Numbered from the whole stretch's first letter, positions 1 to 63,989 are shown. The stretch is 63,989 nucleotides of DNA, filler included, from Stramenopiles sp. TOSAG23-6 (GCA_900128565.1; 3 parts of 3 records of this genome joined end to end with filler, not necessarily neighbours in it), one strand, 5' to 3'. Numbers and translations: made by a program. The notes: a model not told the origin generated them from the sequence alone.

Positions 1-45
1 CAAATTTAAGGTTTTTTTTTTTTCAAATATTTTTCCAAAATACAT
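1..45 (+). mobile_element. 3' end of introner-like intron (acceptor AT), truncated by window start
   Basis: AAATATTTTTCCAAAATACAT family terminus; the next exon starts GAG TTG GAA in the frame of ORF 49. Confidence 0.8.
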
Positions 46-1222
46 GAGTTGGAAGACCAAAGAATAAAACTAGAAAAAGGACTATTAGTCAGAAAAGAAA
101 AGCAACAAAAATTGTCAGAAGGTCAAATGTGTCTTGGTGAAGATGCTGTTGCAGTGCTTGATTCGAAAATTATTACCGCAAAACAAATTCTTGATTCTGG
201 GGAAAAGAAGATTAAAATGCTCCATGAAATTTCAAAGATTCTTCAATCTGGTATTAAAGATTAAAATGCTCCATGAAATTTCAAAGATTCTTCAATCTGG
301 TATTAAAGTCTTATATAATCAATTGTCGCCAGCTGATTACACCAATGATAATAATAAAGTACAAAAAATACCAGAAATTTCAAGACCTAGTACAGGTAGA
401 TCAAGACCTAGTACAGGTAGATCAAGACCTAGTACAAGTAGAAAAAGTGCTATCTCTAATGATATCACCAACGCAATACCATCTAAATCACGAGATCTCC
501 AACAAAATGAGACAAGAAAGGGAACAAAGAAAGATGTACCAAACCCTAATTCTCATTTATTACAAGTTAATCCTCCTTTAGAAATGCTTTCTAAACTTTT
601 AGGAATTATAGAATTTCGCATCAATGTTGTTGTAGGGGAATGCATATATCAGCAACAAGGAGCTGCCGAAAAACAAAGAGAAGAATTGATAATCGAACAA
701 AAACGATTCGAGGCAGAGGAAGCCCGAGAAAATTCAAAATATTCAAAATTAGGGATAGGTTCTAAACAAGCAAAAGTTCATTATAAAAAAAATAGTCATT
801 CATCAATAATAGGCATACGAAGTGATAAGAGTAGGAAAAAAGTAGAGAATTTTTCTACAATGTTTGGTTTCGATGGAGATAAAATGGAAAATATTGAAAA
901 TAAATCTACATTGGCTATGCCTCCGATTGATTTCATGCGAAGAGAAAAGTTTAAAGGAGTTCTGCCCAGACGTGCCGCTGAAATTGTACCCAAAAGATTC
1001 CTAAAACTCGTCACTCGAGGTCCAGATATTGAAAAGCGTGATATACAAGGTATTGCAAAAATTACGTCGAGTAAAATGATAGCTCAGCAAAATCTTTTGA
1101 ATAATTATCTNGATGAGCAAGCTTTGAGTAACTCACTTGTACCATTGTCTTTGAGTCAAATTAGAGAAGTCACAAAATCCTCATANGTAAAAATCAAAAA
1201 AGATATTCAAAATACAAGTTAA
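46..1222 (+). CDS. Terminal exon of an uncharacterised coiled-coil protein (5' part outside window); apparent frameshift at a 49-bp duplication
   Basis: ORFs 49-264 and 134-1222 become one frame if one copy of the 49-bp tandem duplication (211-308) is removed. Confidence 0.55.
382..440 (+). repeat. 21-bp coding tandem repeat (SRPSTGR, ~3 copies)
   Basis: tcaagacctagtacaggtaga repeated. Confidence 0.85.
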
Positions 1223-1363
1223 TGTATGTACGAAATATCCTAAAAGAAGAAAAACTATTGTGATGATAATTACTCGTGCAATCACAAAGCACCTTTATTT
1301 TAATTCCAAGAGTTNAATGATATATATATATAAAATTAGTTGAATATAAGTGTATCTCAAGCA

Positions 1364-1741
1364 TTAATCTTTTCTATTCCATGTCATTGTAGCTAAAATT
1401 TCAGCATCTTTGGGGTCTTGAACCATGACCAAATCCTTCATCTTCTGTTTACGTAAGACATGCAAACCAATCCATTCATCGTTCCAAGATTTCTCACCAT
1501 CTAGGATATATCCAAACACTGAATTCTCGAAATAAACACTTGTTGAAGATTTGTCTACTTTGAATGTGGCGTTGATGACTAATTGTGGGACAGGCTGTTG
1601 CCGTGTAGGTCTTGAGAAAACCACGGAAAATCGAACCTCATCAACAGAAGAAGAGCTTTCTTCAGGAACGCTATATTTATAAGTGGTACCGCTACTTTTC
1701 AAATATTCTTGTACACGCTCCAATGCACTAGATTTCTCCAT
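1364..1741 (-). CDS. AKAP14/AKAP28-like small protein
   Basis: 125-aa ORF; FSVVFSRPTRQQPVPQLVINATF resembles the AKAP28-family (W/F)SxPTRxxPIP motif (recognised from memory). Confidence 0.45.
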   Translation of the reverse strand: MEKSSALERVQEYLKSSGTTYKYSVPEESSSSVDEVRFSVVFSRPTRQQPVPQLVINATFKVDKSSTSVYFENSVFGYILDGEKSWNDEWIGLHVLRKQKMKDLVMVQDPKDAEILATMTWNRKD

Positions 1742-2120
1742 TTGTTTCTAATTTAACTATTTGAAATAGTATTGTAATTTACTCTAACTGCTTGAGCCTT
1801 GAGTAGTATCTTGCAAAGGTCATAAGTCAACTTTGTGACCGCGGCGTAACTGAAAACAAAAAAGGTACCTGGTACCCATCATTTTCACTGCATTTCAATG
1901 AAAATTTGAAATTTCTATGACAAACTTCTCTCGCAATGATTACTCATCAACACTTTGACGGAAAATAAAGTATATAGAAGAAATAAAATGACAAAAATAA
2001 ATATTTCATTCATTTTTTATAAAAAAAAATAAACGTTTAAAAAAGCCGCTTACATATAGCTCTCTAACACATATGAACAAAGCTGCCCACACATCCTCGA
2101 TGAACTCGAATAAAAAACAT

Positions 2121-4333
2121 TTATTCTGCTGATATAAATGGATCTTCCTCGTCATTATTGACATAACTACTAAATGCTCCAGAATCGATTTGATCTTGTA
2201 CTTGTAGTTCTTTCGCTTGATTCAAATCTGCAGTCGTCATTCCTACATTCGCTTTTAAATCAGCTGTGGATTTTTTTGACAGTGTTTGAAATGTATTATC
2301 AATTTTTATTGCATCCATTTTTTTTATACACTCTGAATCAACATTTTGTGGTTGTGTTGCCTTTGATTCTGTTTCACATTCTTTACCTACCTGAATCCAT
2401 AATTTATTAATAACATCATTTTCTACATCGACATCAACACCTTCTCGGCATACAATGTTCATCATTGCATCAATCATAGGTCGATCTGCTTCACGTAACA
2501 CAGGCCCCGCATTAGATTCAAACATCCAAACTTTTTTTTGAGGATCAAGCATAAAATCTAAACCCATTATCATGAAAGAAGATTTTTCAGGTAATGGTTT
2601 CACTTTCGTCCTCACTGTTTTAGCCAAAATATCAAAAATTTCAAGAACTTTCGGACGAGTTTCTTCCCATAGGTCCCATTCGGACAAAAGAAGGGAACGA
2701 TCTCGAGTAATTTGTACATCTCTATCTAAGTTCCAAGGTGAAAATTCAGAAATTGCAGTGACAAAGTAACCATCATTTATTGTGAAAACAAAATGTCAAA
2801 ATTCGAAATTTGTAAAAAAAATTTAATTGTTCGAATGAAAATGTCTCAACGTAGTAAAAAAAAAAAAAAAAAATCAAATTCAAATTCAAATTCAAATTCA
2901 AATTGAAGTGAACGATAAAAACATACGTGATACATATAAAAATCAACTCTTTCACAATTTCGCGGCGAGTGGAGTAATAAATATATACGCAAATGATGTT
3001 TACGATTATTCACTAAATATGGTAAAATCATGTTTTGTGAAAAAATATTTTTTTTTTTTTTTTTTTACAAAAAAATGTTCTATGAAAAAAGATAAATTTG
3101 AAATCAAATGATGATAGCATACATGGGTTGCACAACGTATGCATTCTCCTTTTCTGCAATCTCCATACATTTTGTGGAGTCTTTCAATAAAAATATCCCA
3201 GTCGAGTAATTTCGTAAAGTCTCCATCATGTATTTTGGAAAAATATTTCAAATTTGATTTTTTTTGTTAGGTATGAAATTTTGTACGAAAAAAAAAAATC
3301 CAAATTAAAAAAAAAAGTTTCAAATTGAAATAATGAAACGTACATGAACCAAACTGACTTTTCAGGATCACCGTCAGATCCAGGAGTCAATGCAGAAGGT
3401 GGGTCTCCCACCCATTTATTATCTCTAATATGCCAAGATGGTGGTGTAAATGGAAAATTTAATGTACCTAATTTTCCTTTATCTGTAATCCATTCATGGC
3501 CTGGAATATCAGCTACACATCGAGAATACACATGTATTGTGAAAAAAAAAAAAATTATAAAAAAAATCGTTAGGTACAAAATTTCGTACGAAAAAAAAAT
3601 CAATTTGAAATTCATGATGAAAATATACATGCTGATCACTGAAGTCTACAGAAACATTATGTAAAGGAGTGTATAATTGAGTCCCTTTCTTTGTTATAAA
3701 CCATTTCACAGAAGGATACTCGGACCATTGTTTACGTTTTGCTAATGCTGCACAGTACCATGGAGCGTGGCCTTCTTGTTTACAATACGAATAAAAAAAC
3801 TTTTTTCGATCTTTATCCGCCACAATTGTACTAAAGTTTTTCACCAATGCCAAATTGTCCGTCAAGTCTTTCAAGAGCTCAAATTGTTCCAATTCTATCT
3901 TACGTGCCATTTCTACTTTGCGCAATAGTTCTTCCTCCTTCAATTTAGATATCTTGTTCTCAATTTCTTTGACCTTGAGATCGCACCTGGCCACCTCAAG
4001 CTGGCAAGAGATACGTGATAGAGACGACGGTGGGGATGCGTTTAGCCTTGATAGCTTCAAGCGAGCTGCAGCAGTCTCTAAACGCCACGTTTGTGCCCAT
4101 GTTGATGCAATCTCTAGCTGTCGTTCCAAATTTTGGCGCTCTATTGTTATCTTTAGCTTCGCTCCGCGTCCAGCAGTCGTGTCGAGATCTTCTAATAACT
4201 CAAACTTTGAAGTAAAACCAGAAGTTGACCCACCAAAGCGACTCCGAACTTTTACATTCCCTTTTCTGCGAGCTTCGGAGTCTGCTGGTCCAGTCCTCTT
4301 CGATTCGGGTTTTGTGGCACTTGGGCCTGACAT
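2121..4333 (-). CDS. Tubulin-tyrosine-ligase (TTL/TTLL) family ATP-grasp protein with N-terminal coiled coil; 5 exons
   Basis: Removing 4 family introns joins ...YVVQPMILPYLVNNRKHHLRIYLLL...YMYHDGYF...FMIMGLDFMLD..KVWMFESNAGP, the TTL core motifs. Confidence 0.8.
2775..2926 (-). mobile_element. Introner-like intron GT-AT (152 nt, diverged, internal TTTGAA repeats)
   Basis: CAC|GTATGT...CACAATAAAT|GAT restores YMYH-DGYF. Confidence 0.75.
3030..3122 (-). mobile_element. Introner-like intron GT-AT (93 nt)
   Basis: AT|GTATGC...CACAAAACAT|G restores VVQPM-ILPYL; lacks the CCTAAC core. Confidence 0.8.
3228..3343 (-). mobile_element. Introner-like intron GT-AT (116 nt)
   Basis: AT|GTACGT...CCTAAC...CCAAAATACAT|G restores the frame. 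Confidence 0.85.
3532..3628 (-). mobile_element. Introner-like intron GT-AT (97 nt)
   Basis: CAT|GTATAT...GTACCTAAC...CACAATACAT|GTG restores SDQH-VYSR. Confidence 0.85.
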
Positions 4334-4722
4334 GTTCCTTTAACAGGAAAAGTATAAATTGAAGGAGAAAATTTGAGCAACAACAAATTCTGCAGCGATT
4401 TGATTCGAAATTCGAATTGCGGTTTTTGAGATTGACAGCGGTGCAAAAAAAGGGTACCTAGTAGCTAGGGTTAGGGTCAAAATAATAATAGTATTACATC
4501 TCGAGATCTGATCTGATCAGACAGTTACACTTGTTTGACACTTTACCTCTTCTATTATTATTACCTCTCATTGCTAAAAGATAGCAACAAGTGAATTGGA
4601 GAAGCGCATAAATCCCGTCGCGTTAGATCTTCATGAATACAAAAAAAATATAATAGAAGTAGCCGTTTATTAGTGGCAATGTATTTGTGGGATTTGGTGT
4701 AGCTTGCTGACAAGCACTGAAA

Positions 4723-7700
4723 ATGATTGTTACTGATGGAGTCTCCGCCAAGGCAGCTGCAACTAAACTAAAAGCCGGTATTAAAGATGTAGTGAATGGT
4801 GATGAAATAGTCGATTCTACTAATGATGCTTCGCAGAATGAATCATCAGGTCGTGTTAAGGTAACAATCATGGCAGGTCGTCATTTACCACGAGCTGACA
4901 AAAAATCGTCAGATCCATTTGTGGAGTTGTCACTCGGAAATCAAACTTTCACGACAAGTACAAAAATGAAAAATTTGAATCCTGTTTGGCAAGAAGAATT
5001 TGAATTCATTGTTTCAGACTGGAATACTCTACTTTCAACAGAAGTAAATATCGCCGTATATGATTGGGATTTAGTCGGAGGAAATGATTTGATGTGTACA
5101 ACAACTTTGGGAGACTTTGGTACTTTCAATGGAGATCCAATTCGAATGGAAGGATACAACCCACGACAACCTGTCGTTGGCCGCGAAGAATCACGCACTC
5201 TTCAACTCACTAATCGTACAAATGGTAAAGATAAAAATCAACCGGGGGGCATGTTGAGTGTACGGCTTTGTGTTTTTGGCTTTCCTGTTGAAGCTCCTGA
5301 TGGAACTAGTGGGAGTATCAAATCTATGCACGGTATTGACGAAGAAACTAGAAATAGACAATTAGCAAAATTAGCGAAAAACTTTAGTCCATCTGTTAGT
5401 AGTCTCAGAGGTACTTGCAATTGTTTCCTTGTAGGTGGGAATGATTTACCTCGGGCAGATAAAACGTCATCTGATCCATTTGTAGAATTTAATTTAGTAT
5501 ATACNGGTCAAAATACAGTAAATAAACGTAGAAAACAATGTTTTAAAAGTAGTAAAAAAAAGAAAAAGCTTAATCCCAACTGGGATGAGAATTTTGTTTT
5601 CGAATTTGAAGATTGGGATTCTTTAAGTAACTCGTACATTGAAGTAAAGGTTTATGACTGGGATCGTATTGGTAGAAATAAATTAATGGGGACAGCCTCA
5701 ATTATAGGACTAGATTTTATTGCAGGTAAACAGCTTCGAGCTGGTGGGCCTGAAAGTTTTGACAGAACTGAACCACTAGTTGGCGTAAATGATGTTCGAG
5801 TAATACAATTAGAAAACCATACCACGGGAGTTGACAAAGATGAACCAGGTGGTGAAATTAGTGTGAAACTCCGCGTTGAAGGATTTCCAACCAAGAAGCA
5901 AGTCAGTGAAGCTCTTCGATCAATTAGATTAGCAGAAGCAAAAGAAAGACGAGAAGCAAAGCGTAAAGAAGATGCTGAATTCGCACGAAATCTTATTGCT
6001 TTATCTGAAAAAAGCCAGGGATTTAAGATGCTCCGTAATTTCCGAAAAGAAGTAGAAAAGCGAAAACAAGCTAATATTGATTTAGCATGGGAACTCAAAC
6101 TTGAAACAGAAGGGCAGCAAAAGCAAATTCTCGAAAATGAACGAGCTGTGCGTGATAATTATGGTGATATGATTGAGCGTCTTAATCCTGATAAATTCCA
6201 TTGGTCATTGAAAGATGTTTTAGTTGAGTGTCTCATTGAAAAGAAAGCACCGAGTGTTGAAATGTTAAAACAATATTTTATAGATNGAGAAAGCATTGGT
6301 ATGCGGTATCAAGATATGTATGAGAAAGGACGTACTAGAACTGAACACCTCAAAGTACTGGCGGATCTTGAAAAGGAAAAATTAAATCGGAAGAATAGAA
6401 TCCGATTTTCCAAAGTTGCCGCGGAAGACGGCGAAGATAGTGGTGAAGACTGTGGTGAAGATGATGCTGGGAGAGAACTACATGAAGATAGAAAAGAAGT
6501 TGATGATTTAGAACAGAAATCTGGTGAGGCCGAGGAAGTGGAAGGAGATCCTAAAATTGCCGCAGCAAAAATTGCTTTATTGGAAGCTCAGGAAGCAGAA
6601 GATGAAGAAGCTATTGAAGAAGCAAAAAAGGTATTCGAAACTCTAGGTGTTCCTGTGCCAGGTGAGCTTACGTTAGCGCAGATATATGGAAGAACAGAGG
6701 AAGAACAACTTCGATGGGAAGAAAAAACTGCAATTCGATTTCTTGGTGGCATGAACAAAAATTATTATTGTGTCAAGCAATTAGTATCCCGATCACTTCG
6801 GCGCAAAACAAATATTACAATTAAATGGATGAAGCGAGAAAAGCGCAAGATTGATCGTGAAGAGAGTCGCAAGAAAACTGAAGCGAAACAAAAGGAGAGA
6901 CAAAGACTAAAACTTGTACAGACTGAAAAGAAGCAAAGGCATGAAAAACTTAGACGAGCTCGTAAAAAGTTGATAAGACGTGCACTAGGTGAGACCGAAG
7001 AAGAAGCCGAACAGGACAGTTACGATGAGTACTCTGCATCGGGATCTGATATCGAGGATATACTCGCAGATGCACAAGCAGTTGCCTTATCTGCGAAAGA
7101 TAATTTGATCCAATTATATGAAGAGTTTCATGCTGTTCAACTTTCTTTACATGATACCGTAGAGTCCAAAGAGGGTCCTTCATTGGATGAAGATGTAGTG
7201 ACACTCCAGAATCAAATGAAATCAAAGCTCCTAAAGCATGATATTGAAGCAGCCGAAGGTAATTTAAAAACTGTTGAAACAAAACTGCATAAAATTTGGC
7301 TGGCAAATAAGAAACTTGATTCTAGTGTNGATGAAAGTAAGCGCTTATCCAAAGATGGCGACGAAGATGAAGACAAAAACGATGAAACATATTTGAATTT
7401 GCGATCTGAAAATAATGATGATGATGAAGTAGCTATAGGGCAATCTAAAGAACCACACAATGGAAATGAAAATAAGAGAAATGAAAATGAAGAGAAAATT
7501 GACGCTCAGTTTCATGAAGATCAAAACCAGTCTGATTTATGCAATGATGGAAATGAAAGTATCAAGGATATTGATAAAGTTCCGAAAGATCACAAAAATA
7601 CTCAAGATGTAATACGTAACCTTTCTGGTATTCCAAGCACTGACTATACAAATATGTATATATCAAAACCTCGNGAGAAGAAACGTATTACAAAGCGAAG

Positions 7701-10700
7701 GCGTCGACGTAAGAAACGTGGCCGTTTCGCGAAAATTGCTACTCATGTTGGAGGCACCAAATATGCCCATGTAGAACGTGTTATTGTTGGGCGTCTAAAA
7801 AAAATGAAGGAGAGTGACAAGTATAAGGCCTTATTAGAAAAAGCCGCTGAGGCAAAAGCAAAAGCAAAGCAAAAAGCTATCGAGGTTAATCTCAGAGCAA
7901 AAGCAGCTGCAGCAGAAGCTAAACGGTTAGCAGAGGAGAAGCGCAAGGCAATGCGCGATTCTGAAACATATAAAGCTGCTATAGCAAAAGCTAAGAAAAC
8001 TCGAGCCTTAGCAAAACAAAAAGCCGCCGAAAGAGCACATGCTTCGTATAAGAAATCTAAAGAAGCAAAACATGTTGCCCGTATAAAAAAGATCACTTCT
8101 GCAAAGGACAAAGCATTGAGAAAAGAATCTAAAGCTGATACAAAGAAACTTAAAAATCTGCAAAATGCAATTCAAAACATTGAAAAGAAACGTGAACAGA
8201 CTAGACTTCAATTAAACTTGCTCAATGCTGAACCAACCAAAGAAGAGAAACTTGACGAAGAACTCGAACTAGATGCTATGGAGGAAGAAGATAAAACTGC
8301 ATACATTGAACAAAAACTAATCGAAAAGGCTGAAGAAAATGAAGAGTTGAAAGCCAGAATTGATTCTTTTGATGAGGAAATGATNTCTGCGAAGAAATGT
8401 ATTGATACATTCATTGCTACTTGTACTGCTCGTGATAAAAAGCGCCAGGAAGAAGAAGCTGCGATAGCAGCAAAGAAAGCCGAGGAAGCCGCTTTAAGTG
8501 GCAGGCTAAAACTTGAAATTTTGCGAGTATCTTCACTCCCATCAGTGAATGATAAAATCCTTGCAAATCCTTTTGTGGAAATCAAATACAAACCAAATTT
8601 AAATGAAGAGTCCTTATCAGAGTCCAAAAATAAACCCAAAGATGACATTCGGGATGTTCAAGAATTTCGAACTAAAATATTAACAGATACGACTAATCCA
8701 GAATACAATGAAACATTCGTTTTACATATAAAAGATTGGGATGCTCTATGTGCTGGAAAAATTGAAATACATATTTGGGACTGGGACATGATAAATAAAA
8801 ATAAGCTTCTGTGTACTGCCGTAATAGAAGATTTATCATTTCTTATGTCAGAAGAGAGACTTCCTATTAAGTCGAATGATGCAGATAAAGACGAACCTGT
8901 GTTGGATATATTAGATACGCGAACAATTGAATTTCATAATTCTGAGTCTACTTCATTAGAAATGAATAATAAAAACGCCAATGCAGATTTGAAAATAGGT
9001 GTACCCGAGAATGATACTGATGAAGCCGATAGTGAAAATAATAATATCAGTGATGAAGTCAAAAATGCGGACGAAAAGGCCAAAATGTACGTCAATCTCA
9101 CTGTATTTGGATTCCCAATGTCACAGTATAACAAGGTAATGGGTATAAGNGAAGAAATTCCTGAAGTAGAAACCAAACATGAATCAGATAAACATGTGGT
9201 TGCATTAGATATTGATGAAGCTGATACAAATATGTCTGCTGTAAAAAAATCTACAGAGATACACGATAAACTTTTACTAGAGCTGAATAGTGCTAAACAA
9301 ATGATGGATGCCGCCAATGAGAATTTAGAAGCGCAGAAATGTAAGCGGATTGCGAAGGAATCATTGTTGGAAGAAGCAACTAAACTCCTCGAAACTCNGG
9401 AAGATGAGGAGGAGAGACGTGATCAACAAAATTGCATTGAGGACTTAAAAACTGATCTCTTATCTCAAATAGAGAGTGAGGAAAGTAAAAGTGAAATTGT
9501 AAAACGTATGAAATCAGAATTAGTACTAGCAGAAGCTGCTTTGGCAGCAGAAGTAGACGCTCAGAAATCAACACAATCACTATATACATTAAATACATCA
9601 TTAGCCAAATCAAAAGAATCAAAATCTTCATTGTTCTGGGAAAAAGTCCAAAANAAATTCAAAAATGGACGAAGGCGTGGTGTCACTACAATTAAGTTGA
9701 GAAATGAGACACCATTAATAAAGGCAATACGAGCAAANATGAAGATTGTTAGGGAACACGAGCGTGTAATTAAACTTCAAAAGAAAATGAAAGAAGCTGT
9801 TGCTCAAATGCAAAATAAAGCTATTACAAAATTGCAAAACACCACAGCTGCTCGTCATGCACATACAGCAAAACAAATTACATTAGCTGCACATCAAGCT
9901 TTTATTCAAAGCAATGCCTACAAGTCAACAAAAGAGAAAGCACTTAGAATCAAAAAGCATTTAAATGACCCCGAGAAAAGAGCGGAGATGAAAGCAAAAT
10001 TAGAAGACAAACGAAGGATTCTCAAAGAGAGAACAGCAAAACTTAAACAAATGTTGCAGGAAAAGAAGGAGTTTACGATGGCCAAAGCAGTAGAGTTAAA
10101 GAAACAAATGGAGGATCGTAAACTTCGCTTGGCAGCAATGGGAAAAGAAGAGAGGAAGGCATTTTTAGCAAATGAAAAGGCCGAGAAGAAGGCCAATCGA
10201 TTAAAACGTGAAGTTGAAGATGAAAAATTACTTGAAGAAGAGAAACAAAGGAAAGATGCCGAAGAATGGAAGTTAATGCAAATGACTGAAGAAGAACAAA
10301 TGATTCATAAGGCAACACTTGAAGAAGAGAAAAAAATAAAACTTGAAGCAATGTCTACAAACGAACGCCAATCATACCTTTATGAAGAACAACAAAAAAA
10401 ACAGCGTTTGAGGAAAGCGAAGATGTGGGTTAAAGTAAGGCGCCACCGGCGAAATCTTGAAACCAGGGTATCAAGATTTAAAGAAACAATCCTGTCATTA
10501 AGAGATGCAGAAAAACGAGCACTACTTCTCGANGAAATGAGAGACCGAATGGCGGATGCTGCGGAAAAGAAGAAATTGGACCTCATCATTAAAGCCCGAC
10601 AGGCGAAAGAGCTTGCTACAAACAAAGAGAAGCGGAAGGAGTTGAAATTACTTGCAAAGAAACGAATGCGTGAAGCCAAAGAAAAAGCAATGGACAANGA

Positions 10701-13700
10701 CACACGACAACAAGGTTTTAATGTCTTGGCCAAACTGAAAACGAAGTTGTACAAAAAAGCATCCCAAGCAAAAAAGGCGGCAATGGCAACCAAAGCAGCA
10801 AAGAAAGCAATGGAAAAACTTGAGCAAGCACAGAAATCTGAAACATACCAGAAAGCCCTCGCTGCCGCAGAAGCNGCAAAAAAAAAGGCGATGGAATCGA
10901 GTGTAATGCAAAATGCAATGAACAGTGAAGCAATGCAGGCAGCATTAAAGTACAAGGAAAATGCAAAGCTAGACACCCAATTCAGGAAAAAAGAATCACT
11001 AAGTGTTCGACTGAAAAATATGGCAAAGAATAATATGGCAACTGAAGCCCTTTCCAAGCAAGTGTTCAAAATAAAGAAAAAGGCTGTTTCTTTGAAAGCA
11101 GATATTGATCGTGCCGCTGAAGAGCGCGGTCTAAAAGTTATTGTAGATTGGAAAGAAGATCCAATTGGTGCATCAAAGCATATTACACGACAAACTAGAG
11201 CTATAATTGAGAAAAAGTACGAGTGGTCAAAAAAATATCGCCAGCGTGTTAGCACTCTTCAGTATAAAGTTAGAATACTTCTTGCCATGAGGAAATTAAA
11301 TCTTTTGCGCCGAGATCATCAGAAACGAATGGAGTCTGCTGATTGGATCATTGCTCAATATCGACTTCGATTGACACGTCGTTTGATAGCAAAAAGTAGA
11401 CACCAAAAAAATGTAATGGCCAAGCGAATACAACGTTTAGCAATGATATTTTTGGGGAAACTACTTCATATACGATTATTCAGTATACGAGAAAAGGCAG
11501 TAGTGTGTATTCAAACTAGGGTACGTGTATTTTTAGCACGCCCTTTTCTAATGAGATGGAAGCAACGTAAACAATTTCAAAATTGTGTTTTCCCCGGATC
11601 ACGTATATTCCTACGTTCTTGTGATGGTTGTTACGTTCAACCAGAAGCACTCACTCGACGTATGATTGCAAAGCCGCCTAAAGAACAAAGATCTTTCTTT
11701 TGCCGTTTTTCAGTGGGTACATGCTATCGAAGATATCGACACTCATCTAGCATTGTGCTGAATGGAGATCCAATATCATTCAAGAGTCATCGAAGATCTT
11801 ATATATCATCCGCACCAAAGATATTTGGTCGATCGGGAGTGGAGAGGCGAGGTTGTCCTCGCGGGGGTATATTCGATAAAAGATTTTCTAGTGGTGTGCA
11901 TTTTGATTACAAAACAATGCAGACAACAAAAGTATTGACAGCAGCGAAGTACTTAGAATGGGATCAACCGGGAGATGGNCAATTATGGCGAATATATAAA
12001 GACCCGGCAGAAAGACATTCCCAGCCTCAAATAGTGAGTGGAGATTTGGTACTATTAATCAATGAAGAATCGCGCGAAGCACTTTCATGTGAAAATGGTG
12101 TACTTGGAACTATTCCTCTAACACGAGGAGCAAAATATTGGTGTTACTTCAATATAATTATTGAGGGTTATGAGAAAACAGGTGATGGTCGTATACTCGT
12201 AAGTAAAGCTAATCTTACAGCATCACTAGTAAATGAGATGAAGTTGGCTAAAATGCCCGGTACAACAACTTTCAGAAAGCGCTTATTTCGAATGGAAAGA
12301 AGTTTACAACCATTTGTACGTAGTAAGAGCTTTATCGCGCTAGAAAATGCTAGAACNAATCCTGGAATCCATGATAAAAGGGACGAGGAGGCCCGACGGG
12401 CCTTAAGGGAAGCCATAGATACATTTGATAAAACATTGCCAACTTTATTTCTTGGAGCTAGTCGCACATGTTCTATTTGTATTTTTAGTGATGGCACGGT
12501 TGAANTATGTAGTTTTGGAATTGATACAGAGACACAGAAGCAAGCAAGATTACAGAAAGAATTCCAAGAGTCATTAGAAGTTGTAACAGAAGACACAAAA
12601 AAAGCTAATGAATCCAATGAGTGGATATCTCTTCGTGATGCATGGGAAAAGGCCCGATCAGATGTTGCTAGTCATACTAAAAGCATAAAGAACTCTCGTA
12701 AATACAAAGATTTTATATTCAACCTCTCAGTAGCCCAGACCGACCTAGAAACGTTACACGAAGAAGAAACCAAAGCTAATGCCCGTATATTACACCTAAA
12801 GCGCGCTGTGGGAAATAGTACTAAGAAGAGTCGTTCTGTTTTACGAAAGGAAGCTCGTGAAGACAAGCTAAAATCTGAGCGAGNAACTAAGCGCGCCGAA
12901 CTACAAAAAATTATGAAAGAAAGTAAAGCTGCAATGGTAAATATGGTAGAAGGAGGAAGCGCGGTAAATATTCTTGCTGATAAAGTTCAAACATGCTTTG
13001 AACAAGTAAATGAATATATGTGTGCCCATCTTCTCGGCGTGAATAGGATTATGGATGAGTATTATGACCGGGCAAAAATACATGCTGAATGGCTTGAAAA
13101 ATCCTTAAAACACACAAAGACAATGAAATTTGAAATTGATAGAATTGGAATCAATTATGAGTATGGGTGCAAAGAAATCGCAGAATCAATTGTGTATGCG
13201 GCACCAACTGTTGGCTTCGATGGGGGGTTTTACATTCCAAAAAAATATCAAATATCTGATTCTTCAAGACATGTCATTGCACCACTAGCATCTCAGTGCA
13301 TTTTAGGGAAAATTTTGAGCGACGGTTCACTTCAACTCACAGGAATAAGAGAGCAATGGTCGCAAGAAGTTTTTCTTGATAGCAACAGTGTCAGAAAAGC
13401 AGCTGTGTGCCTGCAATGGAATCCACAGGAAAAGAAAAAAAGAAAAAAGAGACGAAAAAAGAAGCGGAATGGTAGAAATGGTAAAAACAAAAGTCCCAGA
13501 TCAAGGAAGCATTCAACAGATATTTCAACAGTATCTACAACGTCTTCAACACCTGAATCAATCTCACCGATACATAGCCCAGAGATACCTAAAAAATCTG
13601 CAATCATTCCTATTATTCCATCCAAAGAAGAATTAAAATGCTGGAGTCTTATTGAAGGTGCTATTGATGCCCAGAGTAAAGATAAAGATGGCGCTGGCAA

Positions 13701-14568
13701 AAAGCTAACTCTTGACCAATTGCGACGCATACAACTAGCAAAAGTATTTGTCAGTGAGGGCTGGTGGGAGACATATGCTATATTGGCTCTTGAACGCATG
13801 GGTGATAATATCGAGAGTGCCCGAGAGTATTTGCTCAACGGGCATGCCAAGGATTATTACATAGCAACAGAGGCGATCCGCTGGGGAATGTCAAGAATTA
13901 ATTCCCGTTCTTTTGAAGATCGATGGCGAGATCCTCACTTGGAAGCTTGGAAAAATAAGTCTCCTTGGGATCAGAGACATGTTGCATGGTTACAGCGAAC
14001 AGCACGTTTGCGACCCGTTCAACTTCCAAAATGGGTATGGCGATTACATCCTGAGTGGAACTGGCTTCGTTATGGTTGGTCAGAAAATCTTTTGACACAG
14101 AGCGCTTATGCAGCAACAGAGGAACGAAGAAATCATCTAGTAGCCGAAGCAGCAGCTGCGGAGGCAGCCAAAAATGCACCAAAAGTACCTGGTTTGGACA
14201 TGTCATCTGTTGGAAGATACGATGAAAATGGCAACTGGGTTGAGGGTGGCGAAGAACTTGGATATTACGACGAATATGGAAATTTCATTGAAATCAATAC
14301 TGAAGGCCAGCTTGATTCTGTTCCCGATGGAGAAGGTGGGGAATATTTTGTAAATATGACCGTGGACGGATTTTGGGAGAGTGAAAATATGTGGTATGAA
14401 GCTGATATTGTAAGACTTTTCGAGGATCGATGTAGTATAAAGTGGCACATCGACGATTCTGTCAGTGATGATATTCCTTATTCATTTATAAGACCTTTTA
14501 AAGAGGGTAGTAAAGAACAACGCCAGACGGATGCACTGACAGAATTAGGACAGCGCTACTCTTGGTGA
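4723..14568 (+). CDS. Giant intronless 3281-aa protein: three C2 domains, long coiled coil, IQ-like motifs, possible beta-trefoil, UBA-like and C-terminal Tudor-like domains
   Basis: C2 motifs SDPFV..LNPVW.EEF..VYDWD three times; IQxRVR motifs; ALERMGDNIESAREYLL (UBA-like); VDGFW....WYEADI (Tudor/Agenet-like). Confidence 0.85.
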   Translation: MIVTDGVSAKAAATKLKAGIKDVVNGDEIVDSTNDASQNESSGRVKVTIMAGRHLPRADKKSSDPFVELSLGNQTFTTSTKMKNLNPVWQEEFEFIVSDWNTLLSTEVNIAVYDWDLVGGNDLMCTTTLGDFGTFNGDPIRMEGYNPRQPVVGREESRTLQLTNRTNGKDKNQPGGMLSVRLCVFGFPVEAPDGTSGSIKSMHGIDEETRNRQLAKLAKNFSPSVSSLRGTCNCFLVGGNDLPRADKTSSDPFVEFNLVYXGQNTVNKRRKQCFKSSKKKKKLNPNWDENFVFEFEDWDSLSNSYIEVKVYDWDRIGRNKLMGTASIIGLDFIAGKQLRAGGPESFDRTEPLVGVNDVRVIQLENHTTGVDKDEPGGEISVKLRVEGFPTKKQVSEALRSIRLAEAKERREAKRKEDAEFARNLIALSEKSQGFKMLRNFRKEVEKRKQANIDLAWELKLETEGQQKQILENERAVRDNYGDMIERLNPDKFHWSLKDVLVECLIEKKAPSVEMLKQYFIDXESIGMRYQDMYEKGRTRTEHLKVLADLEKEKLNRKNRIRFSKVAAEDGEDSGEDCGEDDAGRELHEDRKEVDDLEQKSGEAEEVEGDPKIAAAKIALLEAQEAEDEEAIEEAKKVFETLGVPVPGELTLAQIYGRTEEEQLRWEEKTAIRFLGGMNKNYYCVKQLVSRSLRRKTNITIKWMKREKRKIDREESRKKTEAKQKERQRLKLVQTEKKQRHEKLRRARKKLIRRALGETEEEAEQDSYDEYSASGSDIEDILADAQAVALSAKDNLIQLYEEFHAVQLSLHDTVESKEGPSLDEDVVTLQNQMKSKLLKHDIEAAEGNLKTVETKLHKIWLANKKLDSSXDESKRLSKDGDEDEDKNDETYLNLRSENNDDDEVAIGQSKEPHNGNENKRNENEEKIDAQFHEDQNQSDLCNDGNESIKDIDKVPKDHKNTQDVIRNLSGIPSTDYTNMYISKPXEKKRITKRRRRRKKRGRFAKIATHVGGTKYAHVERVIVGRLKKMKESDKYKALLEKAAEAKAKAKQKAIEVNLRAKAAAAEAKRLAEEKRKAMRDSETYKAAIAKAKKTRALAKQKAAERAHASYKKSKEAKHVARIKKITSAKDKALRKESKADTKKLKNLQNAIQNIEKKREQTRLQLNLLNAEPTKEEKLDEELELDAMEEEDKTAYIEQKLIEKAEENEELKARIDSFDEEMXSAKKCIDTFIATCTARDKKRQEEEAAIAAKKAEEAALSGRLKLEILRVSSLPSVNDKILANPFVEIKYKPNLNEESLSESKNKPKDDIRDVQEFRTKILTDTTNPEYNETFVLHIKDWDALCAGKIEIHIWDWDMINKNKLLCTAVIEDLSFLMSEERLPIKSNDADKDEPVLDILDTRTIEFHNSESTSLEMNNKNANADLKIGVPENDTDEADSENNNISDEVKNADEKAKMYVNLTVFGFPMSQYNKVMGIXEEIPEVETKHESDKHVVALDIDEADTNMSAVKKSTEIHDKLLLELNSAKQMMDAANENLEAQKCKRIAKESLLEEATKLLETXEDEEERRDQQNCIEDLKTDLLSQIESEESKSEIVKRMKSELVLAEAALAAEVDAQKSTQSLYTLNTSLAKSKESKSSLFWEKVQXKFKNGRRRGVTTIKLRNETPLIKAIRAXMKIVREHERVIKLQKKMKEAVAQMQNKAITKLQNTTAARHAHTAKQITLAAHQAFIQSNAYKSTKEKALRIKKHLNDPEKRAEMKAKLEDKRRILKERTAKLKQMLQEKKEFTMAKAVELKKQMEDRKLRLAAMGKEERKAFLANEKAEKKANRLKREVEDEKLLEEEKQRKDAEEWKLMQMTEEEQMIHKATLEEEKKIKLEAMSTNERQSYLYEEQQKKQRLRKAKMWVKVRRHRRNLETRVSRFKETILSLRDAEKRALLLXEMRDRMADAAEKKKLDLIIKARQAKELATNKEKRKELKLLAKKRMREAKEKAMDXDTRQQGFNVLAKLKTKLYKKASQAKKAAMATKAAKKAMEKLEQAQKSETYQKALAAAEXAKKKAMESSVMQNAMNSEAMQAALKYKENAKLDTQFRKKESLSVRLKNMAKNNMATEALSKQVFKIKKKAVSLKADIDRAAEERGLKVIVDWKEDPIGASKHITRQTRAIIEKKYEWSKKYRQRVSTLQYKVRILLAMRKLNLLRRDHQKRMESADWIIAQYRLRLTRRLIAKSRHQKNVMAKRIQRLAMIFLGKLLHIRLFSIREKAVVCIQTRVRVFLARPFLMRWKQRKQFQNCVFPGSRIFLRSCDGCYVQPEALTRRMIAKPPKEQRSFFCRFSVGTCYRRYRHSSSIVLNGDPISFKSHRRSYISSAPKIFGRSGVERRGCPRGGIFDKRFSSGVHFDYKTMQTTKVLTAAKYLEWDQPGDXQLWRIYKDPAERHSQPQIVSGDLVLLINEESREALSCENGVLGTIPLTRGAKYWCYFNIIIEGYEKTGDGRILVSKANLTASLVNEMKLAKMPGTTTFRKRLFRMERSLQPFVRSKSFIALENARXNPGIHDKRDEEARRALREAIDTFDKTLPTLFLGASRTCSICIFSDGTVEXCSFGIDTETQKQARLQKEFQESLEVVTEDTKKANESNEWISLRDAWEKARSDVASHTKSIKNSRKYKDFIFNLSVAQTDLETLHEEETKANARILHLKRAVGNSTKKSRSVLRKEAREDKLKSERXTKRAELQKIMKESKAAMVNMVEGGSAVNILADKVQTCFEQVNEYMCAHLLGVNRIMDEYYDRAKIHAEWLEKSLKHTKTMKFEIDRIGINYEYGCKEIAESIVYAAPTVGFDGGFYIPKKYQISDSSRHVIAPLASQCILGKILSDGSLQLTGIREQWSQEVFLDSNSVRKAAVCLQWNPQEKKKRKKRRKKKRNGRNGKNKSPRSRKHSTDISTVSTTSSTPESISPIHSPEIPKKSAIIPIIPSKEELKCWSLIEGAIDAQSKDKDGAGKKLTLDQLRRIQLAKVFVSEGWWETYAILALERMGDNIESAREYLLNGHAKDYYIATEAIRWGMSRINSRSFEDRWRDPHLEAWKNKSPWDQRHVAWLQRTARLRPVQLPKWVWRLHPEWNWLRYGWSENLLTQSAYAATEERRNHLVAEAAAAEAAKNAPKVPGLDMSSVGRYDENGNWVEGGEELGYYDEYGNFIEINTEGQLDSVPDGEGGEYFVNMTVDGFWESENMWYEADIVRLFEDRCSIKWHIDDSVSDDIPYSFIRPFKEGSKEQRQTDALTELGQRYSW

Positions 14569-31358: not shown

Positions 31359-31407
31359 CTGTACAATTTTATTTTGAAATTAAAAATTATTTTGTGTTGT
31401 CATATTT

Positions 31408-40839: not shown

Positions 40840-40870
40840 TTTCTTTATTTTCTTTCTACTTTTATAACCA

Positions 40871-48301: not shown

Positions 48302-48362
48302 GTATCTTTTATTTTTTTTCAAATTCGATTTTTTTTTCGTACGAAATTTTGTACCTAACGAA
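48302..48362 (+). mobile_element. 5' half of introner-like intron at contig end
   Basis: CAT|GTATCT...CGTACGAAATTTTGTACCTAAC followed by Ns. Confidence 0.85.
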
Positions 48363-48462
48363 NNNNNNNNNNNNNNNNNNNNNNNNNNNNNNNNNNNNNN
48401 NNNNNNTTAATTAATTAANNNNNNNNNNNNNNNNNNNNNNNNNNNNNNNNNNNNNNNNNNNN
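48363..48462. other. Artificial contig linker N-TTAATTAATTAA-N
   Basis: Same 100-nt cassette as at 24308. Confidence 0.95.
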
Positions 48463-48530
48463 TTTTTTTTTCGTACGAAATTTCGTACCTAACGATTGTT
48501 TTTGTAATTTCGTGTTTTTTCACAATACAT
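48463..48530 (+). mobile_element. 3' half of introner-like intron (acceptor AT) at contig start
   Basis: CGTACGAAATTTCGTACCTAAC...CACAATACAT|GT. Confidence 0.85.
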
Positions 48531-49780: not shown

Positions 49781-50810
49781 ATGGAAGCAGATGATGGTAA
49801 AGCAATAGTGCAGGTGCTTGCAGATGTGTTACAAAAACTGGTTGCAGCCAATGATAATGTACGTGTATCTCTCGATATTAATAAATCCACACACTTTTCT
49901 TTTCGTCAATTTGTTTTTCCCCTTTTATTTATTAAAACTCTTTTCACAACTTATTATACAATATATAACAAACAAAATTATTCTTAAAGTACAAGACCAT
50001 TTTATATACTTTTTATATCAGCAAGGAGATACGGGGAAAGTCACAAAGTTCCATGCTCTACGCCTTCCAAGTATTAATATTTCAGACTATTTACGCCGAA
50101 TTGCTAAATATGCATCGTGTAGCGCCGAGTGTTTCGTATTAGCGTTGGTCTATATTGATCGATTAATTCAACGCAATAACTTCATTATTTGTTCCTTAAA
50201 CATACATCGTGTAATTATCACAAGTGTTATGTTGGCCGCAAAATTTTTTGATGACCATTATTATAACAACGCATATTATGCAAAAATTGGCGGAGTGCCG
50301 TGTGATGAGATGAATTCATTAGAAATTGAATATTTGTTTCTGATTAATTTTTCATTATTTGTATCTCCTTCAAGCTACTCCAAGTACTTTAATGAATTAT
50401 GTAGTCATGCCAATATATCAGCTTCGCCAAAACCAAATGAATGGCAATTAGCTGGATTAAATACGAATAATACGAAGAAAATAACTCAGGTAAGGAATAA
50501 TGGTACGAATGCTACTCAGGTCGCGATTGATTCAAATAATTCAAATGGTTTATTTGTAAAAGGTTCAAATTGTACTAATAATTCAACTAGTAATAATCAG
50601 AACCCACATTATTTATCATACAATGAAAATTCACAGAGTTATGAACCAAATAATGAGAACAAAAATCAGCGTTGGAATGAAAAAAATGAATTTTCAACGT
50701 CGAATTTTTCTTCTGACTCTAACCCAAACCCTAGATCAAACCAGTTTAATAATGTTTGTCATATGCCTGTAGCGATGTCAAGCAATATGAATAACGCTGA
50801 ATTTATGTGA
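49781..50810 (+). CDS. PHO80-like cyclin (cyclin P/U); 2 exons
   Basis: [57 protein letters not shown]. Confidence 0.92.
49859..50021 (+). other. Conventional GT-AG spliceosomal intron (163 nt), not of the repeat family
   Basis: AAT|GTACGT...TTTTTATATCAG|CAA, phase 0; lacks the palindromic core. Confidence 0.85.
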
Positions 50811-51111
50811 CATACTCGATTTGATGTAGAGTATAGAAAAATATAATATTTGAAAATAAACAAAAAAAAATCTATGACCTGTGTCAGTTACGTACAAAAT
50901 CACTTTTTTTTTTCTTGATTGCTACTGTACGTGAGGTACCAATACATCTACTAGCTAGTTATAGGTAGTACTCTTTCTACTTTTAAATAGTGCATTACTC
51001 AGAAGGACAAGTAAATTACATAGGTTAAAGAAATCTTTGTGTGTATTATATGAGTAAATTAGTAGATGCAAAACTCTTAAATTAATATACTATATTTAAT
51101 ATACACCCGCG

Positions 51112-61454: not shown

Positions 61455-61710
61455 CTTGAAGTAGTTTTGAATCTCATGTGAACACAACGATTTTTTTTCC
61501 TGATGATGGATGGATTTGACTGATTTTGATTTAGATTGCGATTGATATATTATTCGAGTTTTGAGCAGTTTTGTGTTCTTAAAGGTTCAAGAAAAAATAT
61601 TCATGACAAAAGTAATTTGATTGGAAATAGGCTTTTTAAAAAGATGCAAATTGAATATATCAAAAAATCTTTTTTTTTTTTCAAAAACAATTTTGAAAAT
61701 TTTGTGTTTT

Positions 61711-62057
61711 TTATTCTGATTGTAAAAAAATGTTATATTGTTGTTGATATATATCATTATAAGCAGATGTGAAGGCTTCTTCAGAATATTCTAAATGTGA
61801 AATTTCAAAAGCTTTGTTTCCCATTTTTTTTGCTATTTTAGGATGAGATATCAACCATAACGTAGCAACCGCTAAATTATGTATAGGTGACAGAGGTTCA
61901 TCATCAACACTTCCACATGGTACTAATATTCCTGATTCTAAATGTCTAATTATATTTGGCATGTTTCCGATATTACAAGCAACAACAGGAATACCTAAAG
62001 ATTGTGCTTCAATTACAGTCATTCCAAATGTTTCACCAAACCTTGAGTTAATATTTA
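61711..62057 (-). CDS. Glycosyltransferase family 4 C-terminal exon (upstream exons unresolved)
   Basis: ETFGMTVIEAQSLGIPVVA...G....I.....GILV; possible TAG acceptor at 62058-62060. Confidence 0.6.
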
Positions 62058-62483
62058 CTATATATATATAAAGCATAAATTTATTTTTTGGTAAAGACGA
62101 CAAGCATAAAGTTTTTACTCAAGCATCATAAGGCAATGGCGAATTTTTTGATAGAGACGGTTTGTCGAGATGTTCTCCAAGTTCATTTACATTCAAACGT
62201 TTTTGTTGTTCTGGTGTGTATACACTCATTACCCATGAGCCCATATTTTTTTCTCCTAGCGGTTTCTCACTATAATGTCAGGATTATTTGGTTACAAAAA
62301 AATGAGAAATATGACATATTACAGTACGATGTATGAGTAGTATGGAATAGTTTTAAACTTACAAATTTTCATTCCATGTCCACTCAGGTCTATAATGTAG
62401 AAGGATTTTTTTGATGTAGTCGATGAGAAATACGAAACATGGAAATGCGAAGTACAAATAGTATGGGATACTCTCAAAACTTA

Positions 62484-62585
62484 CCCAGTCATTCCTATCG
62501 GCTCTTCAACAGTATTTTGTCCAACTCTGGCATCTGCAACACCAAGAACAGCTAAAGACAGCAGTGTAGCGAGTCTAAGTTTCAT
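62484..62585 (-). CDS. Possible first exon encoding a signal peptide
   Basis: MKLRLATLLSLAVLGVADA followed by a GTAAGT donor. Confidence 0.4.
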
Positions 62586-62833
62586 CTTTGTGGATTTCGG
62601 TTTCTTTTTCAGTTTTAGTTGTTGAGCAGTTGTTGTTGGTGAAGGAAGAAAGAAACTTCTTGGAGAAGAAATTTCAGAAATTTCGAGCAAAATTTAAAAA
62701 TGACGTCATCGTCATTTCGAACAGATTCTTCGTTCAAGGATGCTTCGTTCGTGTACTCCAGTAATAGGTAAAGGTTCATCATTTTCAATTTCAAATTACA
62801 TTTATAACCCTAAATGTACAATTGAATAGCAAA

Positions 62834-63989
62834 ATGCTTTTTATACTTGTACTATTTTGTTTATGCAATGCTGCTTTTGCGGACTCATTAGACACTCCCT
62901 CAGTTTCTTGTTCACCCTCTATTCAGTTTGAGAACCCAACAAACGGTGACATTTTTTTTCACGGTAAGGTTGAATTCAGAGTACACTTGACGTGTGACAC
63001 TAACACACGGCTATGTCTACTCATAGATAAGAACCCTGACATTATGAAAACATCTCCAGGTACAGGTGATTATTTTTGTTTAGACACAAAGGATAATTTT
63101 GAATTTTCTGGGTTAAATGTTGGAACGCACATGATTGATGCCATTCTATTACCAACAGAACCAACAGACCCAATAGAATACAGTGAAATAAACTCACCAA
63201 AACCAGTTGCATATGATGTTGTGACTTTTGATATTATACCTTTACCAGGAGGTGACTATTTTGATCCAGATCCTTCCAAAGTACCACCAAGATCTCTTAT
63301 TCAAGACAAACAACTTGATTCTTTGTTACTTATTCAAGACAAACAAAACCCTAACCCTGATTCTGTGTTACTACACGATAAAAAAAACTCAAAAACCTCA
63401 GATACAATTTCAATTGGACTTTTAAGTTTATCTGACTCCTTTGGTGGACAAGAACGGTTATTTCTTAATCAAGCAAAACTACTCCCTCTCATGTACGTTT
63501 TATTTTTTTCAATTTCGGATTTTTTTTTTGTTCGTAGGAAATTTCGTACCTAACAAAAAAATTCAAAAAAAAAATATTTTTTCACAATATCTTCATCAAA
63601 CAGAAGGTAAGAGTGAAAACCCTACTAACCCTCATAATAAAAATAGAAATCGTAAGCCAATATATGAAGTTGTATTCATCACTGCTCCAAAACTGGATGA
63701 AACATTATTAAGCAACTTTTCAACATCTGTACGTTTTTTACAGATGAATTTTAAATTTAAGATTTTTTTTCGTAGTAAATTTTGTACCTAACGATTTTTT
63801 TTTACCGAAAAAAAAAAATAAAATAAAAAAATATTTTTGTACAATGTAGAACGTTTCATGGGAAAAAGCTGTAATGGATCCACTATTTTGGACAGAGGAT
63901 AATTTTTTTTGGAATAATTCACATCATGAGTTACATGTATGTTTTATTTTTTTTCAAATTCGAATTTTTTTTTCGTACGAAATTTTGTA
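62834..63989 (+). CDS. Secreted/lumenal protein, probable GT4 glycosyltransferase N-terminal part; 3'-partial
   Basis: Signal peptide; Ig-like IQFENPTNGD..GLNVGTH; FGGQER motif; frame restored across family introns. Confidence 0.6.
63493..63592 (+). mobile_element. Introner-like intron, apparent GT-CT (100 nt)
   Basis: AT|GTACGT...CGTACCTAAC...CACAATATCT|T; end inferred from frame and the 15-nt spacing. Confidence 0.7.
63729..63849 (+). mobile_element. Introner-like intron, GT-AG member (121 nt)
   Basis: TCT|GTACGT...GTACCTAAC...ACAATGTAG|AAC. Confidence 0.8.
63937..63989 (+). mobile_element. 5' part of introner-like intron, truncated by window end
   Basis: CAT|GTATGT...CGTACGAAATTTTGTA. 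Confidence 0.85.

Follow-up and report, generated by a model that had tools for sequence, protein, structure and literature searches.

Many genes in a 63,989-nucleotide (nt) stretch of Stramenopiles sp. TOSAG23-6 (GCA_900128565.1; three parts joined end to end with filler, hereafter "the window") are interrupted by copies of one short repeat. We propose that this repeat is an introner family of the miniature inverted-repeat transposable element (MITE) type, and that splicing removes each element along with one copy of a 2-bp duplicated target site, so that the introns end mostly in AT. We put the probability of this reading at roughly 0.8. What appears to be new is that the dinucleotide at the end of the intron repeats the upstream flank, presumably via the 2-bp target-site duplication.

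The family is abundant in the window. Its 22-nt core, CGTACGAAATTTYGTACCTAAC, has 25 matches with at most 3 mismatches, while 0.01 matches are expected. A profile built from 16 copies gave 38 matches in a scan of the window (threshold E <= 0.01): 26 complete copies, 1 degenerate complete copy, 2 halves of a copy that is split by an assembly gap, 1 half-copy at a gap, 2 copies that are cut by the ends of the window, 4 fragments, and 2 opposite-strand echoes of sense copies. (The echoes arise because the element is partly palindromic, with two loosely symmetrical halves.) The profile missed a copy of 152 nt at 2775-2926, which was recovered by scanning for GTAYGT. Complete ungapped copies number 28, range from 89 to 152 nt, and are spread over about 11 genes. 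The original prediction, which was made by inspecting the sequence, described one abundant introner-like family with this consensus and this range of lengths. The core count and the profile bear this out, but it reported 29 complete copies and we found 28.

The consensus runs GTAYGTTTT, a T-rich stretch with TTCAAATT, a T run, CGTACGAAATTTYGTACCTAAC, a variable A/T stretch, (G)AAATATTTTTYCAMAATAC, and NN. The core contains a near-perfect palindrome, GTACGAAATTTCGTAC, which is overlapped by a yeast-like branch motif, UACCUAAC. The donor begins with GT in 28/28 copies (consensus GTAYGT), and a CTAAC branch motif can be recognised in 25 of 27 copies, at 33-58 nt upstream of the 3' end (median 39), so we agree with the earlier view that the donor is canonical. 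The conserved 3' terminus of the element is ...CAMAAUAC, and the two ends of the element (GTA...TAC) are inverted. Pairwise identity among the copies has a median of 70% (range 54-94%). As had been claimed, the copies are always in the sense orientation: all 28 complete copies are sense to the open reading frame (ORF) that they interrupt. The copies and fragments are as follows, with the intron's terminal dinucleotides and with "flank" for the two nucleotides before the GT.

1-44, plus strand: 3' part of a copy that is cut by the window start, ..AATACAT/g
2775-2926, minus strand: 152 nt, GT..AT, flank ac, in a TTL-like gene; in frame, and the downstream exon is the C-terminus of the TTL domain
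3030-3122, minus strand: family intron of 93 nt, GT..AT, flank at
3228-3343, minus strand: family intron of 116 nt, GT..AT, flank at
3532-3628, minus strand: family intron of 97 nt, GTATAT..AT, flank at
14829-14926, minus strand: family intron of 98 nt, GT..AT, flank gt (non-matching), in a SET-domain gene
15053-15151, minus strand: family intron of 99 nt, GT..AG, flank ag
16861-16962, minus strand: family intron of 102 nt, GT..AC, flank ac; an unused AG lies 10 nt past the branch A
17126-17232, minus strand: family intron of 107 nt, GT..AT, flank at
18507-18609, plus strand: family intron of 103 nt, GT..TT, flank tt
18769-18869, plus strand: family intron of 101 nt, GT..AT, flank at; 3' end set by hand
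18947-19037, plus strand: family intron of 91 nt, GT..AT, flank at; an unused AG lies 5 nt before the end
19153-19254, plus strand: family intron of 102 nt, GTGCGT..AT, flank at
22130-22232, plus strand: family intron of 103 nt, GT..TT, flank tt
22440-22491, minus strand: fragment, middle part only, outside long ORFs
24408-24462, plus strand: 3' half-copy behind an assembly gap, ..ACAT; contigs from other copies diverge right after 24462
24987-25086, plus strand: family intron of 100 nt, GT..AT, flank at, in a RabGAP-TBC gene
25169-25264, plus strand: family intron of 96 nt, GT..AT, flank at; an unused AG lies 4 nt before the end
26053-26157, plus strand: family intron of 105 nt, GT..AT, flank at; RNA contig X6 rec9 matches up to 26155
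27617-27705, plus strand: family intron of 89 nt, GT..AT, flank at; RNA contig X6 rec11 matches from 27703 onward (record position 111)
28261-28359, minus strand: 99 nt, GT..AT, flank tc (non-matching), in an EDR2_C gene; 3' end set by hand; RNA contig X9 rec26 skips it
28518-28618, minus strand: 101 nt, GT..AA, flank gt, with an unambiguous boundary (homologs and X9 rec26); an unused AG lies 4 nt before the end
29630-29675, minus strand: fragment upstream of the EDR2_C gene
30846-30944, plus strand: DBT intron 1, 99 nt, GT..AT (18 homologs); an unused UAG ends 2 nt downstream
31118-31215, plus strand: DBT intron 2, 98 nt, GT..AT, flank tg (non-matching); 13/18 homologs gapless
32980-33076, minus strand: family intron of 97 nt, GT..AT, flank at
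33380-33475, minus strand: family intron of 96 nt, GT..AT, flank gt; 3' end set by hand
34805-34896, minus strand: family intron of 92 nt, GT..AT, flank at
35297-35387, minus strand: family intron of 91 nt, GT..TT, flank tt; contig X7 rec24 (35331-35499) keeps the 5' part
40847-40901, plus strand: fragment just after the ORF at 40120-40836
46983-47093, plus strand: degenerate copy of 111 nt, GTACAC..AG; its removal joins the ORFs at 46442-46990 and 47075-48355 in frame
48302-48530, plus strand: gap-split copy or copies (48302-48362 and 48463-48530), GTATC.. and ..ACAT
63493-63592, plus strand: family intron of 100 nt, GT..CT, flank at (non-matching)
63729-63849, plus strand: family intron of 121 nt, GT..AG, flank ct, with an unambiguous boundary
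63937-63989, plus strand: 5' part of a copy that is cut by the window end, cat/GTATG

Some of these copies have peculiarities of their own. The 152-nt copy owes its extra length to a (GAATTT)n microsatellite together with an extended T tract (2880-2912, minus strand). Two scaffold linkers (24308-24407 and 48363-48462; each has 44 N, TTAATTAATTAA, and 44 N) both lie within copies of the element, which implies that the assembly broke at the repeat; the assembly may under-represent the number of copies and some of the exons. Also, a 29-nt fragment with only the core (48027-48055, scored on the minus strand) would be antisense to the ORF at 47075-48355 (plus strand). It is the sole possible antisense piece within coding sequence, and its strand is uncertain, as the core is palindromic.

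To define the introns, we let each one begin with GTAYG and extend 2 nt beyond the aligned ...AATAC. The motif alone set 23 of 26 ends, and the other three (in the introns that begin at 18769, 28261, and 33380) were set by hand, using the end motif and a frame list. If the 26 copies are deleted as GT...TAC+2, then continuous ORFs run through 26/26 sites, and all 23 of the motif-only ends are in frame. For example, a fused ORF of 1320 codons results from the removal of 5 copies and another of 1090 codons from the removal of 4. Removal of the 152-nt copy, or of the degenerate one at 46983-47093, likewise keeps the frame. Thus, ORFs are fused at 28/28 copies, and the claim that precise removal restores one frame in each gene stands. 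The introns are found in all three phases (11, 7, and 8 of the 26 copies are in phases 0, 1, and 2). Conversely, retained copies would be open and in frame in only 2 of 27 cases, in a test whose upstream-phase heuristic misjudged the frame for 3 introns with short exons (3030, 19153, and 25169).

As a set, these 28 introns do not have the canonical GY-AG borders that published surveys use as a filter (PMC12130899): although 28/28 begin with GT, only 3/28 end with AG. The others end with AT (19), TT (3), AC (1), AA (1), or CT (1). The earlier tally was the same for every class but AT, for which it gave 20; its twentieth AT was probably the gap-split copy (48302-48530), which is out of frame by one base if it is read as a single intron. 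A profile of the repeat with a table of terminal dinucleotides had been suggested as a check, and in the window, to which we applied it, the non-AG ends dominate.

Comparisons to homologous proteins confirm several of the junctions, and conserved domains run across them (the DBT catalytic motif, EDR2_C, and TTL). In the DBT gene, removing 30846-30944 as GT..AT gives a junction that aligns without gaps to 18/18 homologs. A UAG ends 2 nt past this intron, but using it would shift the frame off a conserved block, and it is unused in the frame that the homologs support. The second DBT junction (31118-31215 removed) is gapless against 13/18 homologs, and the other 5 have insertions of their own. 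The residue at this junction is G and matches a column of G, D, or N, while reading the intron as NN..AC would yield C; the nearest in-frame AG would remove two residues relative to the homologs. Finally, removal of the GT..AA intron at 28518-28618 joins ..ARKILGL to VSGCAKKLELELGYLIESQSMEELPER.., and 20 of 22 EDR2_C homologs align across this junction with no gap. Its residue V sits in a column of hydrophobic residues, where a boundary moved by one or two nucleotides would place E or K.

We also aligned contigs from three metatranscriptome runs and one DNA run (X2) to 24408-36900. These are assembled contigs, not reads, and the findings hold among the contig joints listed (there are 311 more joints); neither the lack of RNA contigs over some parts nor the very deep coverage of repeat bins was taken as evidence. 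A 276-nt contig from a polyA metatranscriptome (X9 rec26) lies on 28170-28259 and then on 28359-28517 (90 + 159 nt). It omits exactly the 99 nt of the intron at 28261-28359, with a one-base offset because a G is shared by the intron start and the next exon. As the flanks of this intron differ (tc and at), the join fixes the intron as GT..AT and excludes NN..AC. The match ends at 28517, which is the predicted ..AA boundary, and leaves 27 letters, which are too few to align. Two other RNA contigs, X6 rec11 and X6 rec9, break at 27703 and 26155, which are the limits for spliced forms of 27617-27705 and 26053-26157, given the shared CAT. In the independent seawater DNA run X2, the contigs enter the elements at the same sites. 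A check against transcripts had also been proposed; the contigs support GT..AT at 28261-28359 and give partial support in three cases, with one case of apparent retention (X7 rec24, discussed below). ORF logic, homolog alignments, and RNA contigs all uphold the claim that most of the 3' boundaries are not AG.

The aligned contigs differ from the window at 25204, within the intron at 25169-25264, where all four runs have T and the window has G. This difference may reflect the family consensus rather than the locus, since the contigs sum many copies.

In 19 of 26 copies, the dinucleotide just upstream of the GT recurs as the last 2 nt of the intron. If flanks and ends are paired by shuffling, then the mean is 10.9 matches, and 0 of 100000 shuffles reach 19. 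Even among the ends that are not AT, 5 of 8 match the flank as direct repeats (AG/AG, AC/AC, and TT/TT three times). As these matches are direct and not inverted, they point to a 2-bp target-site duplication rather than to an extension of the inverted repeat. The sites also show a preference for insertion in the context C-AT-G. The flank-end match, the inverted GTA..TAC ends, and a partial foldback symmetry are marks of a transposon, and along with the many copies and the restored frames, they agree with the proposal that this introner-like family is transposon-derived. Domain searches of the window's ORFs found no transposase.

Other models of the duplication were considered and rejected. A 4-bp duplication (CATG) predicts that every intron is followed by a G, but only 12 of 26 are; a 3-bp duplication fits only 11 of 26 copies; and duplication of TA was rejected in the comparison of flanks to ends. 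The idea that AT is an extension of the inverted repeat was ruled out by the direct TT/TT, AG/AG, and AC/AC pairs.

A simple scenario would account for these features. A miniature non-autonomous element, derived from a DNA transposon, would carry its own U2-type donor, branch motif, and conserved 3' terminus. Its insertion would duplicate 2 bp of the target, which is mostly the AT in C-AT-G, and only the copies in the sense orientation would survive in coding sequence. The spliceosome, if this is indeed spliceosomal chemistry, would make its cuts just ahead of the GT and 2 nt beyond the terminal AC. The element and one duplicate would be lost, which would return the mRNA to its sequence before the insertion, in any codon phase, and the 3' dinucleotide would be whatever was duplicated (AT, TT, AG, AC, and so on). 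This would require that the 3' cut be placed relative to the end of the element, perhaps by some form of measuring, and not by the first AG.

The pattern at the 3' ends bears on this last step. Position -3 is a pyrimidine in 27/28 copies, position -2 is A in 24/28, position -1 is T in 23/28, and the intron always extends 2 nt beyond the (T)AC that closes the element. As the distance from the branch to the end varies from 33 to 58 nt, the cut is not at a fixed distance from the branch. Nor does the first AG that is at least 12 nt past the branch A predict the end: among 27 introns, it falls on the inferred end in 2, offers an in-frame alternative in 5, and would cause a frameshift in 20. (The count of in-frame and out-of-frame AGs is independent of the upstream-phase heuristic.) In 3 introns, an AG that is just 4-5 nt before the inferred end is bypassed. 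AGs are scarce after the branch (7 seen versus about 20 in shuffles) and also before it (14 versus 28).

The original prediction was that the acceptor dinucleotide is essentially free, and here we differ. The end resembles Y-A-T, lies at a fixed offset of +2, and copies the flank in 19/26 cases. Because the end follows the insertion site at a fixed offset from the end of the element, the acceptor is not free; its variation reflects the insertion site and not a spliceosome that accepts anything.

As to how the end would be found, it is conceivable, though we hold this only tentatively, that the second step of splicing takes place without a search for AG and that the cut is measured from the introner's terminal motif or from pairing of GUA with UAC (...YAC + 2 nt). 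In 4 of 8 folds of single copies, the 5' GUAU pairs with AUAC (3-4 bp) and the last two bases are free. If such a ruler exists, then a mobile element and the spliceosome would have co-adapted, to the point of bypassing a perfect UAG that is 2 nt away. And if most of the host's introns belong to such families, then U2AF, Slu7, Prp18, and Prp8 may have changed accordingly. The host may also, as the original prediction proposed, routinely use a modified system for recognising 3' splice sites.

Several observations weigh against our interpretation. First, the three 3' ends that were set by hand (18769, 28261, and 33380) are partly circular as evidence from reading frames. Second, the flank does not match the end in 7 of 26 copies (9 of 28 if the two extra copies are included); these mismatches may be later substitutions. 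Third, no empty site was seen, and the AT cases may reflect a preference for insertion without any duplication; they are ambiguous because AT is its own reverse complement. Fourth, among the joints listed, only one RNA contig fully bridges an intron, and the others are contig ends. The bridging and breaking RNA contigs are all assembled contigs from one study. An RNA library can also contain DNA. In addition, X7 rec24, a contig from an RNA library, retains the 5' part of the intron at 35297-35387. Fifth, AG may still be read when it is present, given its depletion after the branch. (The depletion test is weak because the copies share descent and because AG is depleted on both sides of the branch.) Finally, RNAalifold found no consensus structure among the copies, the terminal pairing is without covariation support, and the fold energies of single copies are mostly no better than those of shuffles (z from -0.2 to -5.1).

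A second explanation is that the family is removed by the minor (U12-type) spliceosome, which is tolerant of non-AG ends, including the rare GT-AT. The element bears some resemblance to U12-type introns: its CCTAAC differs by a single base from CCTTAAC, the consensus of U12 branch sites, and GTAYGTTTT matches GTATCCTTT, a form of the U12 donor consensus, at 7/9 positions. However, U12-type donors have the consensus RTATCCTY, and the ATCC core is absent from 28/28 copies. Also, U12 branch sites are usually 10-20 nt from the 3' end. In this family, the branch motif is 33-58 nt away, in contrast to the close branch sites described by Sheth et al. (2006; PMC1557818). Their compilation does list animal GT-AT introns, namely 7 U12-type introns and a U2-type intron in DGCR2, and it cites experiments in which GT-AT and AT-AN pairs were spliced by the U12 route. 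Overall, we consider removal by the minor spliceosome to be unlikely.

Third, the elements might be excised from DNA, in the manner of internal eliminated sequences, by a domesticated transposase in a transcribed nucleus, and then no unusual splicing would be needed. Inverted ends, a 2-bp direct repeat, and precise loss are the anatomy of transposon excision, and an RNA contig that lacks two adjacent introns could have come from excised DNA. But excision gives no reason for a strand preference, and 28/28 copies are sense; the conserved GTAYGT donor and CTAAC branch are splicing signals; and contigs from the independent DNA run retain elements at the same sites, among the joints listed. Nuclear dimorphism is not known in stramenopiles. 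This explanation seems very improbable.

Finally, canonical GT-AG splicing (or other boundaries), with ORFs that are restored by coincidence or by our choice of ends, or else a set of pseudogenes, is hardly credible: although 5/27 introns have an in-frame alternative AG and three ends were set by hand, the first AG would cause a frameshift in 20/27, 23/23 motif-only ends are in frame, homologs fix the lengths of three junctions, an RNA contig shows a GT..AT join, and long conserved domains continue across the junctions. Each of these three alternatives fails on a feature that was tested.

The closest parallels to the element-plus-duplicate introns that we propose are other introners. In Micromonas IE1 and Chrysochromulina, according to Gozashti et al. 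(2022; PMC9860276), introners carry their own 5' splice site and derive the 3' splice site from the target-site duplication; introners with acceptors of this origin are also covered in a review (PMC11282704). As in those families, we find a short multi-copy element in genes, with inverted ends, a target-site duplication, and a donor that the element supplies, and the intron would consist of the element and one duplicate, which leaves the length of the mRNA unchanged. In those families, though, the duplicate supplies an AG, whereas the 2-bp duplicate here is mostly AT and seems to be used whatever its sequence, with AGs bypassed.

Amoebophrya is another marine protist with repeated MITE-like introns, and Farhat et al. 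(2021; PMC7789003) describe direct repeats over the borders and inverted repeats. The non-GT-AG borders, on the scale of the genome, are a further similarity. However, that account describes no clear signature and no conserved dinucleotides at either end, and a U1 small nuclear RNA (snRNA) that was not found, while the family described here has a strongly canonical donor and branch and is unusual in its 3' dinucleotide alone. Also, the direct repeat is 2 nt here versus 3-5 nt in Amoebophrya, whose inverted repeats are given as 8-20 nt.

In the animal Fritillaria borealis, introns are MITE-derived, with terminal inverted repeats and target-site duplications, 3' ends of AC or AT are tied to a TAC motif, and the spliceosome accepts non-AG acceptors (Henriet et al. 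2019, as covered in PMC11282704; bioRxiv 10.1101/2025.08.15.670264). The MITE origin and the non-AG acceptors tied to TAC are shared with our family. The Fritillaria introns start with AG, and that animal has duplicated U2AF subunits; here, the donor is canonical. The animal GT-AT introns mentioned above have the same terminal pair, but each of them stands alone as a conserved intron, whereas here most members of a presumably mobile family are of the GT-AT form. Finally, nonconventional introns of euglenids resemble our family in that they have border repeats like target-site duplications and ends that can pair, but unlike it they lack a conserved GT donor or branch motif (PMC11282704).

A search of full-text literature, with supplementary tables outside its scope, returned no account of this family or of any other introners of the GT-AT kind, nor did a word search of two single-cell genomics papers on marine stramenopiles (MAST). 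A survey of introners from 2025 (PMC12130899) checked families against the borders GT/GC/GA/AT...AG/AC, and families that were mostly noncanonical were inspected against transcript data, with failures discarded. Because of this filter, a family like the present one could be missed or dropped.

Few signals in eukaryotic gene expression are as constant as the AG at the end of introns, and large departures from it are known from very few lineages, in which the donor is abnormal too. In contrast, this element combines a textbook donor and branch with an acceptor that alone departs, so that the choice of the 3' site can be considered by itself; this makes the element a naturally occurring test of how an intron's end is picked by the splicing machinery. 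If splicing can absorb a 2-bp target-site duplication whatever its sequence, then the conditions under which transposons can become introns are wider. There is also a practical consequence: gene finders and introner surveys that demand AG or AC acceptors (PMC12130899) would miss these introns, which would lead to many truncated or frameshifted genes in an abundant group of uncultured marine protists.

We call the host a marine stramenopile because of the relatives of its methionyl-tRNA synthetase (MetRS). This protein is 90% identical to GSMAST32.ASY1.ANO1.1742.1 from EukProt, which, going by its label, we take to be from a MAST single-cell assembly; the next matches are from oomycetes and other eukaryotes, at 42-50%. 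The sequencing runs that contain this stretch are seawater and marine metagenomes and metatranscriptomes. The window has a GC content of 30-39% and is densely filled with long ORFs. Their products include a 3285-amino-acid C2-domain protein, MetRS, an ankyrin protein, a RabGAP-TBC protein with EF-hands, a SET-domain protein, an EDR2_C protein, DCP1, a cyclin, and the C-terminus of TTL. The ORF for the C2-domain protein (4711-14565, plus strand) runs uninterrupted for 3285 codons; it has three C2-domain matches and lacks family introns. Most of the window's isolated N positions (20, of which 19 are at 1111-12884 and the other is at 37017) fall within this ORF, and they look like low-confidence base calls. 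No clear intron from outside the family was found in the window, and the gaps between same-strand ORFs at 50807-51100 and 61586-61714 look intergenic. The window has no match to Rfam and no snRNA, and there is no splicing factor among its ORFs.

Searches beyond the window turned up one more copy. It is 104 nt long and lies in a metagenome contig (3221 nt, 35% GC) as cat/GT..ACAT/g, within a lysine-rich ORF, and deleting it restores an ORF of 225 codons. Outside of the element, this contig (L156) has no similarity to the window, so it is either from elsewhere in the genome of the same organism or from a relative. Searches with the proteins of the DBT and EDR2_C exons found no near-identical spliced protein; they gave distant homologs and one 98% match, which seems to derive from a DNA contig, and added no further junctions at the RNA level. 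No locus related to the 486-amino-acid TBC exon was found in metagenome contigs. A 21-nt pattern from the element had no match in viral contigs. A 16-nt pattern had 35 matches in viral contigs and at least 120 in genome contigs, but re-scoring with the profile left only 5 weak ones (E >= 1.8e-4), so we attribute all of the 16-nt matches to chance.

Finally, there are two telomere-like repeats in the window. One, AACCCTAACCCTAACCCTA at about 24775-24795, is within the ORF of the TBC gene and encodes NPNPNP. The other, TAGGGTTAGGTTAG at about 40905-40925, directly follows the truncated copy at 40847-40901.

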